From NCBI RefSeq assembly GCF_044324875.1, contig NZ_CP172185.1: DNA of 64,000 bases. One strand, given 5' to 3'. This document shows positions 61,279 to 63,677 of the stretch, in pieces. A program made the translations under genes and the position numbers. Position 1 is the stretch's first letter, and each line of letters opens with the position of its first letter. The DNA is from Escherichia coli. Its GTDB lineage: Bacteria; Pseudomonadota; Gammaproteobacteria; Enterobacterales; Enterobacteriaceae. The notes beneath the pieces are model-generated. The model was not told the origin of the DNA, did not search any database, and was given only the letters and a program-made list of their open reading frames with translations.

Positions 61279-61856
61279 AAAAAAGAGACCTTAAAAAACA
61301 CCTCCGTAGTCAGATTGAATATTTTGAAGATAAGGCTGCAAAAACAGGGCTTTCCGGTAAAGAGAACATGAACTTCAGGGCACACCTCCTGACGTGGAGA
61401 ATACTTAATATCACGAGAGATGGACTTGAGCCGCTAGCCTACCTGATGGAAGATGGCGAGACCCTCATACAGGATCCCAATGTGGAAATGGAGAAGAAAG
61501 AGATGGACCTGCCGATAATCGGGCTGTTTGAGATCCCTGAACTAATAGGACGTTATGAACACGAAAACCGCCAGCTTGCCGCCTTTTTATCCGTGACAAT
61601 CGAACGACTGGAAGCCGTGAAACACGATATTCCGTTCGGTTTTGATGAGCGCACCGAGGGTGATTTGCTCAGCTTTCAGATTGCCCTGAACGTGCTCACC
61701 GCAGAGCCTTCTGCGTGGCTACGCCCGGAACGGCACCACAACACGTTCGCATTTACCGTAATTCCCTACGATGCCGCACAGGAAGAGGATAACTTCGAGA
61801 CCAGGCTTGTTCCCCTGTATCAGATTGCGGATTTCTATACGTTGATTCGCTGGTAA
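61275..61856 (+). CDS. hypothetical protein, last gene of the coupled block
   Basis: 193-aa ORF followed by a strong terminator. Confidence 0.55.
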   Translation: MKKRDLKKHLRSQIEYFEDKAAKTGLSGKENMNFRAHLLTWRILNITRDGLEPLAYLMEDGETLIQDPNVEMEKKEMDLPIIGLFEIPELIGRYEHENRQLAAFLSVTIERLEAVKHDIPFGFDERTEGDLLSFQIALNVLTAEPSAWLRPERHHNTFAFTVIPYDAAQEEDNFETRLVPLYQIADFYTLIRW

Positions 61857-61870
61857 TCCCCCACAGTAAA

Positions 61871-61895
61871 ACAGCCCGACCGGGCTGTTTTTTTA
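61871..61895 (+). terminator. rho-independent terminator ending the early/replication operon
   Basis: acagcccg ac cgggctgt followed by ttttttt. Confidence 0.8.
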
Positions 61896-61951
61896 TCTGA
61901 TATTTTTGATAACGTTGACCGGCTCATTAGCAAAAAAGCAAAGAGGAAAAC

Positions 61952-62338
61952 ATGAAAGCCCGTATCGGGATCATCCCGGAAAAAGCCCTGCGCCAGCACC
62001 TGATTGATATTGCCAGAGGGAAGCGAAAACCACAGCCCGACGAGCCAAAGGTATGGTTTTCATCCATCAATGCGGCAGGCCAGACGCTGAGCAATGAAAA
62101 TATCGCCCTTCTGCGTCTTATGAATGAGGAGAAGCCGCAGACCATGACCGCACTTGCGGAGTTATCCGGCAGAAAACTGAGCAACCTGTCTGTAACCCTG
62201 AAAATGCTGAGCAGCTACGGTTTTGTCAGTCTGGAAAAGAAAGGGAATACTGTACACCCGAAAGCACTTTTTACCGATTTTGAAATCATCGTTGATCCGT
62301 CCGTGGGTTCAGTACATCGCGCCACCGCCCGGCCCTGA
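61952..62338 (+). CDS. putative winged-helix transcriptional regulator
   Basis: 128-aa ORF with aagagga RBS; HTH-like segment MTALAELSGRKLSNLSVTLKMLSSYGFVS. Confidence 0.55.
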   Translation: MKARIGIIPEKALRQHLIDIARGKRKPQPDEPKVWFSSINAAGQTLSNENIALLRLMNEEKPQTMTALAELSGRKLSNLSVTLKMLSSYGFVSLEKKGNTVHPKALFTDFEIIVDPSVGSVHRATARP

Positions 62339-62350
62339 AGTGCGCAATAA

Positions 62351-62375
62351 ACAGCCCCGTTCGGGGCTGTTATTT
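62351..62375. terminator. bidirectional terminator between convergent genes
   Basis: acagcccc gttc ggggctgt with T-rich flanks on both strands. Confidence 0.7.
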
Positions 62376-62748
62376 ATTCCAGAATCAGCTGTTCAGGTGT
62401 GCAGCCGTACAGTCTGGCAAGGCGCTCAATATTTGCCCTGCGCGGGCGTTCCGTTCTTTCGAATTCGGACACGGTAGCCTGCCTGATACCCAGCGCATCC
62501 GCCACCTGCTTTTGCGTCATTCCGCGATAGATTCGCCACGCCGCCTGCATTGTGCAGCCACGCTCCGAGAGAATGTTAACCACCTCGTTGGGATACAGCG
62601 TATCAGGCGATGCACACGGTTCGTTCTGGACGTCCTCGTAGAGTTCGTCAAGGTCGCTGTCTCCTGCCAGTTTTTCAAACAACGCCACTGGCAGAATGAC
62701 GGACACCCTGTTACCCGCACCGTCAGTAATAAACTGAATCTGACTCAT
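62374..62748 (-). CDS. HigA-like antitoxin (XRE-family HTH at C-terminus)
   Basis: 124-aa ORF with aggaggg RBS; C-terminal MTQKQVADALGIRQATVSEFERT HTH. Confidence 0.65.
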   Translation of the reverse strand: MSQIQFITDGAGNRVSVILPVALFEKLAGDSDLDELYEDVQNEPCASPDTLYPNEVVNILSERGCTMQAAWRIYRGMTQKQVADALGIRQATVSEFERTERPRRANIERLARLYGCTPEQLILE

Positions 62749-62802
62749 TTACCCCTCCTGCTAAACATCGGTTTATTTTTTAATTTGCTGCCGGTGATAA
62801 AA

Positions 62803-62821
62803 AACGGCGGGTCGCCCCGCC
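62803..62821 (-). terminator. intrinsic-terminator-like hairpin between toxin and antitoxin ORFs
   Basis: Minus strand reads taa-ggcggg gcga cccgcc-GTTTTTT immediately after the toxin stop. Confidence 0.5.
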
Positions 62822-63073
62822 TTAGTATGTTGTCGAGGTTCTCCGCTGAATACGGAGGATCCTGATAACCACTATCTGCCCTCCCTCAATCGTGAACCTG
62901 ACACGGTAATGATTTACCCTGAGTCTGTACTCCCCGCCCGAGTCAGTGAGCTTTTTAATATCCAGATTCTGGAACTTCGGATAGCCATAAAGCGCGTTAA
63001 CTTTCTCGCGTAAGGATTTCTGATCCCTCGCTGGCAAAACCCGTAAATCTTTGATTGCCCGAGGGGTCCACAT
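62822..63073 (-). CDS. RelE/ParE-superfamily toxin (HigB-like)
   Basis: ...KKLTDSGGEYRLRVNHYRVRFTIEGGQIVVIRILRIQRR pattern; start may be 63073 (MWTPRAIKDL) or 63094. Confidence 0.65.
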   Translation of the reverse strand: MWTPRAIKDLRVLPARDQKSLREKVNALYGYPKFQNLDIKKLTDSGGEYRLRVNHYRVRFTIEGGQIVVIRILRIQRRTSTTY

Positions 63074-63139
63074 GATTTCAGTCGTCATAAACACACCGGA
63101 AGCAAATTATTAAAGAGCCGTGCCCGCTGGCACACCTTA

Positions 63140-63183
63140 AATATAGGTTTTAACCCCTATATTGTCAAACAAAATCCCTATAT
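63140..63183. promoter_or_regulatory. repeat cluster upstream of the toxin gene, putative operator
   Basis: Inverted repeat AATATAGG-n8-CCTATATT plus a third CCCTATAT copy 13 bp further. Confidence 0.45.
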
Positions 63184-63677
63184 CATGAAGTAAAAAAGCA
63201 CCTCCCGCGACCTCCCTTTCCGGTGCACGAAAGTGCACAAATTTGCACAATTTTTTTGAACGACTTTTTGCCCTTCCGGCCCGTGTGGCGTCTGGATCCG
63301 TCGGGGATCCGTGCGTGCACGAAAAAAGGCCTTTTTCTGCGCGCAGGTGACGGGGGAACAGCCCGCGTTTCAGGGGGTAAATAGCATTCCCTGAACGATG
63401 TTGCAGTGACACAACAGAATGGCTGTATTTCTCACGCTGAGCGTGAAAAAGACGTAAGGGCTTTTGATTTGATGGGGTGAAAGATAAGGCCGTCAAAATC
63501 GCACTGAGGCAGCGAGAATATGTCGTCAGAGTTGCGGGGTTGCGTAAGCATCCGCCCGGCGATGATGGCTACAGGGCTGGAGATGTTGTGAAATTATCTG
63601 AAGGAATAACCAGCTTGCAGGAGAACCCGGGCAAAGTCAGAATAGCGGCAGGCATCAACTCAAAAGAGGATAATGTC

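Follow-up and report, generated by a model that had tools for sequence, protein, structure and literature searches.

The 64,000-nucleotide (nt) stretch of Escherichia coli DNA analysed here (contig NZ_CP172185.1, assembly GCF_044324875.1; hereafter the window) carries on its minus strand a toxin-first toxin-antitoxin operon, in which a promoter (63140..63168) is followed by a RelE-type toxin gene (62822..63088), a 73-nt spacer and the gene of a helix-turn-helix (HTH) antitoxin (62374..62748). From sequence comparison and structure modelling we favour, with moderate confidence, the view that this is a type II operon in which the toxin ribosome-binding site would be locked by fold-back of the read-through mRNA. 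An earlier description of the region from its letters (the sequence-only reading) had reported a toxin-first pair, a promoter with inverted repeats, and a GC hairpin plus U-run between the two genes; all of these elements are present where it placed them, on the minus strand. What it missed is a complementarity between the spacer and the toxin translation initiation region, which is conserved among relatives and points to fold-back translational control rather than to simple transcriptional attenuation.

In the window, the 5' arm of the predicted helix (63094..63114, minus strand) lies in the 5' untranslated region (5' UTR) of the toxin, at −26 to −6 relative to ATG 63088, and includes CCGGUG (63099..63094), the sole Shine-Dalgarno-like sequence of this gene. 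The 3' arm (62776..62796, minus strand), complementary to this ribosome-binding region, lies just past the intercistronic hairpin. Each arm is 21 nt long, the two are 297 nt apart and 86% complementary, and in the core of the helix UAAUUUGCUUCCGGUG (−21..−6 of ATG 63088) pairs with CACCGGCAGCAAAUUA (spacer nt 26–41, 62781–62796). The complementarity was first noticed when close relatives were compared. The helix appears in both the minimum-energy and the centroid structure of a 394-nt RNA, which folds with z = −3.9 and is matched in stability by none of 100 shuffles; the spacer folded alone forms the hairpin only (z = −0.17), and the signal arises once the 5' UTR is included. The observed helix score was reached by one of 3000 shuffles of the spacer and by none of 3000 shuffles of the toxin initiation region. 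According to the partition function, CCGGUG is unpaired at 34% in an RNA ending at the hairpin or at the U-run, and at 0–3% in the read-through RNA; for the wider −21..+3 region the predicted unpaired fraction falls from 55% to about 30%.

Such a duplex, of 16–21 base pairs, might instead be a processing site, at which a cut by RNase III or another double-strand-specific RNase would remove the toxin 5' UTR and separate two cistrons with different decay. RNase III substrates need a certain helix length, and helices bracketing a cistron are classic cleavage sites of this enzyme. The window helix does bracket a cistron and, with 21 nt at the complementarity given above, nears the length of an RNase III substrate. 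In most relatives, however, the helix consists of 8–13 contiguous pairs, few for an RNase III substrate, and has the Shine-Dalgarno sequence at its centre, as occlusion predicts. We consider processing to be very unlikely.

The relatives were gathered by protein searches of phage and plasmid records and by pattern scans of viral and genomic contigs, which recovered an antitoxin match at about 175 loci in phages, plasmids and chromosomes. A RelE-like open reading frame (ORF) is found in 153 of the 175 loci; in 150 of them it shares the strand of the HTH gene and precedes it. Distant relatives (Pseudomonas, Alcanivorax) have the layout usual for type II, with an overlap of 17–23 nt between the two genes, which stand 30–190 nt apart in Enterobacterales, Pasteurellaceae and Neisseriaceae. 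When each toxin ribosome-binding region was scored against the spacer of its own locus, the mean was 18.2, against 14.9 for mismatched loci; 14 of 39 loci exceed the 95th percentile of the mismatched combinations, and in a permutation test none of 5000 rounds reached the observed value. Many clusters have a helix of their own; in the clear cases one arm occupies −13..−1 of the toxin start and the other lies 0–10 nt after the hairpin. The pairing sequences are lineage-specific, as in CATGGAGAGGCA/TGCCTCTCCATG, TGAGGAAAC/GTTTCCTCA and AGAGAGGGC/GCCCTCTCT, and likewise in AATAGGGGAAA/TTTCCTCTATT, AAATTGAGGG/CCCTCAATTT and GGGGCATA/TATGCTCC. The position of this arm explains the pyrimidine- or T-rich tracts that follow many of the hairpins; the Xenorhabdus tract TGCTTTTTCCTCTATT, for one, serves as pairing arm and not as a terminator tail.

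Covariation of the helix was also seen in an alignment. For eight alignable relatives RNAalifold predicted, unguided, both the long-range helix and the hairpin, and six of the 13 helix pairs in this alignment show compensatory changes on both sides. Paired cells make up 82.5% of the helix, against 35–56% when the partner is slid by 1–3 columns, and 3–4 of 500 shuffles reach the observed values. Across the family, the accessibility of −13..−1 is computed to be 0.34 when the native spacer is present; it is higher in RNA cut at the hairpin, at 0.42 (Wilcoxon p = 5e-4), and when the spacer is shuffled, at 0.41 (p = 2e-3).

Between the two genes stands the hairpin itself (62806..62821, minus strand), GGCGGG-GCGA-CCCGCC, a stem of 6 base pairs (bp) closed by a GNRA loop, with a predicted stability of −12.6 kcal/mol. 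It begins 0 nt after the toxin TAA, not 1 nt as had been described, and is followed by GTTTTTTAT; the U-run GUUUUUUA (62798..62805, minus strand), with six U in 8 nt, comes directly after it. For comparison, toxins were clustered at 80% identity, which left 46 clusters whose spacer measures 25 nt or more, and a hairpin was counted when a perfect stem of 5 bp or more, including four or more G-C pairs, began 0–9 nt after the toxin stop. A hairpin of this kind is present in 33 of the 46 clusters, against about 5% of random positions in the same loci and 4% of shuffles. Its sequence is not fixed, since 13 distinct inner stems occur (GCGGG/CCCGC, GGGGA/TCCCC, TGAGG/CCTCA, AGGGC/GCCCT and GGCGA/TCGCC among them), and GNRA tetraloops close 22 of the 33. 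A bias towards GNRA is meaningful in RNA alone. A scan of 61800–63500 against Rfam at E ≤ 10 gave no match at the hairpin or the spacer.

The simplest explanation of a hairpin with a U-run is a terminator or attenuator that sets the ratio of the two mRNAs or splits the transcription units, in which case the complementarity to the 5' UTR would be incidental. In the window the structure does agree with the intrinsic-terminator consensus, and its terminator score, by the d'Aubenton-Carafa formula, is +8.3; the surrounding 3-kb region holds eight terminator-like sites, against 3.7 ± 1.4 in shuffles. This copy is, however, the only one among the 33 toxin-proximal hairpins with a positive score, whereas at least 11 of the 34 hairpins that follow the antitoxin gene score positively; hairpins in that position are flanked by an A-tract and a U-tract, as is usual. 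Toxin-proximal hairpins have a mean of 2.5 T in the next 8 nt, against 4.2 for the post-antitoxin ones, and five or more T are found in just two of the 33 clusters; the U-tract is thus not conserved. On these comparisons a generic terminator was rejected as the conserved function. Canonical termination would appear to be a peculiarity of this E. coli lineage, and the conserved feature is the hairpin itself.

The second suggestion of the sequence-only reading, that the antitoxin is transcribed separately, was rejected. Neither the spacer nor the toxin ORF of the window yielded a promoter-like site in a promoter scan, and in the family just one of 38 spacers has such a site, a weak one, which is fewer than in shuffles. 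The hairpin, moreover, goes with the toxin: 22 of the 175 loci have no detected toxin ORF (L030, L035, L079, L089, L103–L111 and others), and most of the orphan antitoxin loci examined, from Photorhabdus, Xenorhabdus and other genera, have no GC hairpin either. Some of them keep part of the spacer, as L035 does when compared with L032; the exception to the loss is L016, at a cut contig end, which still has the toxin 3' end and hairpin. Because the hairpin is lost with the toxin gene and the spacers hold no promoters, it belongs to the toxin 3' end, and the antitoxin gene is normally read through. Termination ahead of the antitoxin would also tip the balance towards toxin mRNA, the opposite of what a toxin-antitoxin pair requires, and a mere terminator leaves the co-varying helix unexplained. 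We regard this explanation as unlikely.

Under the fold-back model, one autoregulated promoter would give one transcript, on which the toxin ribosome-binding site is very weak and that of the antitoxin strong (a Shine-Dalgarno AGGAGG, read from the sequence at 62754..62759 on the minus strand, 5 nt before the ATG). The toxin site would stay open until the spacer is transcribed; the mRNA would then fold back over about 300 nt and close it, while the antitoxin cistron would remain translatable. With the one site locked and the other open, antitoxin would exceed toxin despite the inverted gene order. In an RNA that ends at the hairpin the lock is missing, and the toxin site is predicted to be more open; such an RNA could come from termination at the hairpin and U-run in this copy or, generally, from 3'-to-5' trimming. 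For this reason the hairpin is best seen as defining or protecting such a 3' end: in this copy it would act as a terminator, probably a partial one, and elsewhere as a barrier to 3' exonucleases.

Several observations weigh against this model. The average change in accessibility across the family (0.42 to 0.34) is modest, and about one third of the clusters have no convincing helix. In the window itself, the accessibility of −13..−1 does not fall when the spacer is present (0.28 to 0.38), and, if the true start of the toxin is ATG 63073, the helix sits 21–41 nt upstream of the start codon. The start of transcription, which would lie near 63133, is placed by consensus match alone. Kinship among the relatives inflates the shuffle-based covariation statistics. 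If a real terminator preceded the locking sequence, unlocked RNA with the toxin alone would be made constitutively, which is awkward unless termination is weak or conditional; such a terminator is difficult to square with safe expression, except where it is weak or a ribosome arriving at the adjacent stop codon overrides it. Finally, a test of G.U against A.C pairs showed no decisive preference for the RNA strand.

This last result bears on the view that the hairpin and the flanking inverted repeat act as DNA, as cassette boundaries, recombination sites or protein-binding sites of a mobile toxin module, with no role in RNA. The joint loss of toxin gene and hairpin in the orphan-antitoxin loci would suit such an element, as would the position of the pair as cargo in a phage hotspot and the 15 nt that the hairpin region of three relatives has in common with cosL, the left cohesive end of phage P2. 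A common recombinase or binding protein would, however, keep a shared motif, whereas the arms differ between lineages and yet stay complementary. One arm covers the toxin Shine-Dalgarno region in the clear cases, the dominant GNRA loops matter in RNA only, and the strong helices contain 16 G.U pairs. Taken with these points, a purely DNA-level role seems to us extremely improbable.

If the toxin mRNA is indeed locked by fold-back, the hairpin might further mark the 3' terminus of a toxin mRNA in its activated form, in the manner of hok, with release triggered at the RNA level; this analogy is tentative, a possibility that we rate well short of probable. In such a scheme, full-length transcripts would be locked for toxin and produce antitoxin. 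When transcription of the operon stops, for example upon loss of the prophage or shut-off of the host by an infecting phage, 3'-to-5' decay would strip away the antitoxin cistron together with the lock and would halt at the GNRA-capped GC hairpin, so that a stable, unlocked, toxin-only mRNA would be left. In this E. coli copy, termination at the U-run could give the same RNA directly. Were this true, a type II toxin would be released without proteolysis of its antitoxin.

Some subgroups of relatives show further arrangements around the hairpin. In a number of Pectobacterium and Photorhabdus loci (L082, L083, L085 and similar ones), the pairing arm GUUUCCUC lies within the first 26 nt after the toxin stop and can pair either with GAGGAAAC, in the toxin Shine-Dalgarno region, or with GGGGAAAC, which makes up the hairpin's 5' arm plus loop; two mutually exclusive structures, and thus a switch, are possible in this subgroup, and the pattern is absent in the window copy. 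The Klebsiella P2-like phage contigs L017–L023 and L039 have a toxin-antitoxin spacer of 170–186 nt, in which the hairpin is followed by an ORF of 16–19 codons with a good Shine-Dalgarno sequence upstream; the short peptides that it encodes, such as MPKNISSGLRSRIRIS and MSKTVSSRSLNRRRIR, are basic and variable, and an AT-rich palindrome, GTTAAAAAT..ATTTTTTAAC, comes after it. In L007, L031 and L036 (positions 1431–1445), the 15 nt after the toxin stop, GGCGAGGCGGGGAAA, form the 5' arm and loop of the hairpin and are identical to the first 15 nt of P2 cosL, GGCGAGGCGGGGAAAGCAC (P2 1–15, L176). The window hairpin has just GGCGGGG in common with P2 cosL, which may be a coincidence or a relic.

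The assignment of the toxin to the RelE/ParE superfamily, proposed from the letters, was borne out by profile and fold. Its gene (62822..63088, minus strand) encodes 88 amino acids (aa) followed by TAA (62824..62822); GTG 63094, which would extend the ORF to 62822..63094 and 90 aa, and ATG 63073 are alternative starts. ATG 63088 fits the alignment with relatives better than GTG 63094, and RefSeq places the start in near-identical E. coli copies at 63088 or 63073. The only Pfam match is ParE_toxin (PF05016, E = 4.4e-9); PHROG 1213, 'RelE-like toxin', is matched at E = 1.1e-14, and the NCBIfam model RelE_StbE reaches 22.7 bits, short of the curated cut-off of 27.9. The AlphaFold model (predicted local distance difference test score, pLDDT, 79) has the RelE/ParE fold, with two N-terminal helices on an antiparallel beta-sheet. 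Foldseek returned the RelE structures 3bpq, 1wmi, 2khe, 4fxe and 9g12 (template modelling (TM) scores 0.71–0.77, E 7e-6 to 2.5e-4), the top fold matches being Methanocaldococcus jannaschii RelE3, Pyrococcus horikoshii RelE, Thermus thermophilus RelE, E. coli RelE and Mycobacterium tuberculosis RelE1. ParE, YoeB, YafQ and HigB structures rank behind RelE, and the HigB-type 6af4 and 7nbu have a higher root-mean-square deviation. A profile built from 11 toxins of the family aligns to residues 8–87 of E. coli RelE, and the family shows no variation at Y61, R62, R83 and the C-terminal Y88. The C-terminal stretch R-R-x-x-x-x-Y, also conserved, appears to match R81...Y87 of RelE. An Arg/Lys cluster and a C-terminal Tyr (R61, R81 and Y87 in RelE) are the catalytic residues that set RelE-type toxins apart from gyrase-poisoning ParE, and a residue-by-residue equivalence with them is presumed here. 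The protein is probably a ribosome-dependent mRNA nuclease, and it would be toxic and neutralised by the product of the neighbouring gene.

The pair had also been called HigB/HigA-like. HigBA has been defined operationally by a toxin gene upstream of an HTH antitoxin gene, the toxin being of the RelE/ParE superfamily (PMC5416850), and in gene order and domains the pair, which is kept in relatives, fits that definition. The toxin is nevertheless RelE-like, as its modelled fold indicates, and neither HigB in the Pfam sense nor of the HigB2/Gp49 type: the Pfam search gave no match to PF05015 (HigB_toxin). Because PF05015 is missing and the nearest folds are RelE, 'HigBA-like' holds only for the gene order and the HTH antitoxin. 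Profile searches of the kind that had been proposed for RelE/ParE and HigA found PF05016 and HTH_3 and not PF05015, and searches of the Protein Data Bank (PDB) detected no similarity to HigA2.

The antitoxin and putative autorepressor (62374..62748, minus strand; 124 aa) proved to be the XRE-type HTH protein that had been expected. HTH_3 is matched at residues 72–121 (E = 8.6e-11), PHROG 7241 at E = 2e-29, and residues 5–28 give a weak RelB-like match. In the structure model (pLDDT 81) a beta-beta-alpha module (residues 5–30) is joined by a low-confidence linker (about residues 31–53) to an XRE HTH domain (54–121) that is predicted to have five helices; the N-terminal module would be the part that binds the toxin. 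A fold search returned HTH-domain matches only, with 3kxa as the best, and homology to HigA2 was considered and set aside when sequence and profile searches of the PDB gave generic XRE domains only. Taken together, the two genes make up a toxin-first type II toxin-antitoxin operon, probably autoregulated, and as a pair they extend known kinds: a RelE-type toxin and a HigA2-style antitoxin in a P2 hotspot.

The promoter (63140..63168, minus strand) is of the sigma-70 type, with the −35 element TTGACA at 63168..63163, a 17-nt spacer and the −10 element TATATT at 63145..63140. It matches the consensus at 11 of 12 positions, and its layout is kept in relatives from Kosakonia and Klebsiella phages. 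The inverted repeats that had been noted in it are real: an 8-nt repeat, AATATAGG/CCTATATT (63140–63147 / 63156–63163), overlaps the −10 element and the edge of the −35 element, and a third copy of CCTATAT lies 21 nt further upstream, at 63177–63183. Together they form a putative operator (63140..63183), whose motifs ATATAGGG/CCCTATAT are invariant in the alignment with relatives, and the HTH protein probably represses its own promoter through these CCTATAT repeats. Just downstream, the mRNA is predicted, in both minimum-energy and centroid folds, to begin with a stem-loop UGUGCC-AGCG-GGCACG (63119..63134, minus strand), which is followed by the conserved motif GCUCUUUAA; relatives have a palindrome of other sequence in its place.

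Nearly all 5' UTRs of the family contain the motif YTCTTTAA about 20–25 nt before the toxin start, and the palindrome before it reads ATCCC-N3-5-GGGAT in most loci and GTGCC-AGCG-GGCAC in the window. The window 5' UTR region 63109..63134 (minus strand) was flagged as terminator-like by the scan. Transcripts from a second promoter-like site, a weak one (63133..63106, 9 of 12 matches), would begin within the 5' helix arm.

Among described systems, Vibrio cholerae HigBA2 resembles the window pair in its inverted gene order and its RelE-like, ribosome-dependent toxin. In the HigA2 structure the neutralising module is N-terminal and the HTH domain C-terminal (PMC5416850), a layout that the 124-aa protein is predicted to share. 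The N-terminal module of HigA2 is helix-then-strand, however, whereas that of the window antitoxin is predicted to be beta-beta-alpha; the PDB searches show no detectable sequence similarity to HigA2 or HigB2, and for HigBA2 we found no intercistronic hairpin or fold-back element reported. The RelBE pairs of E. coli, M. jannaschii and P. horikoshii provide the best fold matches of the toxin (3bpq, 1wmi and 4fxe, TM 0.72–0.77), but there the antitoxin gene comes first, RelB is a ribbon-helix-helix protein and toxin identity is only about 20–25%.

The closest likeness to the proposed RNA control comes from type I systems. Toxin mRNAs such as those of hok/sok, aapA1 and timP carry a stem-loop at either end and a 5'-3' interaction by which the toxin Shine-Dalgarno sequence is hidden (PMC8594479), and loss of the 3' partner opens translation (PMC8594479; PMC13000454). 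The toxin cistron in the window is predicted to share all three features, namely the 5' stem-loop, the 3' stem-loop and the long-distance interaction; for the occlusion of the Shine-Dalgarno sequence the indications are prediction and covariation only. In contrast to hok-type systems, the toxin here is an 88-aa enzyme of RelE fold and not a small membrane peptide, and the antidote appears to be the downstream-encoded HTH protein on the same transcript rather than an antisense RNA; a scan of the strand opposite 62749–63140 gave no antisense promoter-like site. A terminator within an operon has its own precedent in the type III system ToxIN, in which a Rho-independent terminator is reported to set the ratio of the components (PMC5086642). 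That terminator follows the RNA antitoxin repeats and limits the toxin, whereas the window hairpin follows the toxin, so that termination there would limit the antitoxin.

Like HicAB, MqsRA, RnlAB and Rts1 HigBA, the window pair is toxin-first and needs an excess of antitoxin from the downstream gene. Toxin-first type II modules have been reported to achieve this with extra or internal promoters or with differences in ribosome-binding-site strength (PMC5535158), and the same survey of E. coli K-12 describes no long-range sequestration of a toxin ribosome-binding site. Together with reviews of type II control, it lists promoters, ribosome-binding-site strength, terminators and degradation. In the full-text literature, covered incompletely, a terminator, a stem-loop or the sequestration of a ribosome-binding site was found only in the form of type I and type III precedents; in the literature searched, an RNA lock is described for toxins with RNA antidotes and was not found for toxins with protein antidotes. 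The hairpin and its pairing arm would then be a further solution to antitoxin excess in toxin-first modules and, if the model is true, would bring type I RNA logic into a protein-antitoxin system. The element is widespread, occurring in P2-like and other prophages, on plasmids and on chromosomes of Enterobacterales, Pasteurellaceae and Neisseriaceae, and its location in a phage hotspot could bear on the firing of the module during phage infection or loss of the mobile element.

As to its genomic setting, the 961-bp region is found at 98.4–99.8% identity in 9 of 5,426 complete E. coli genomes, every time on the chromosome. In E. coli 23CRST011 the pair lies inside a P2-like prophage, on the strand opposite the phage genes, as the sequence-only reading had it; it is flanked on one side by the genes downstream of the replication endonuclease and on the other by the portal gene. 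The gpA–gpQ interval of P2-like phages is a documented hotspot of anti-phage cargo (PMC9122126), and the pair is part of this variable cargo region. Homology to P88-like phages (Xuanwuvirus) ends at about 63224, the edge of the variable cargo; since the shared sequence stops there, the promoter and both genes are cargo. A cos site abutting the promoter was considered and dropped, as the P88-like match shows only where the common sequence ends; a cos site may be present in the vicinity. RefSeq names the products 'type II toxin-antitoxin system RelE family toxin' and 'helix-turn-helix domain-containing protein'. Membership in a catalogued defence system was rejected, because PADLOC gave generic HTH matches only and left the toxin unmatched.

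The operon ends at a bidirectional terminator-like hairpin (62350..62371, both strands), identified by the consensus scan and common to the convergent gene 61952..62338. This gene (plus strand), which converges on the antitoxin gene and is found beside the toxin-antitoxin pair in all nine E. coli copies, encodes a 128-aa winged-helix protein that RefSeq names 'HVO_A0114 family putative DNA-binding protein'; it matches PHROG 11214 (unknown function) and gives weak ArsR/SmtB and weak PADLOC CasR-like matches. Upstream of the promoter, about 480 nt (63183..63660) hold no convincing ORF and contain a 14-nt palindrome (63230–63253) and a direct repeat of ACCTCCC, present twice (63200–63216).

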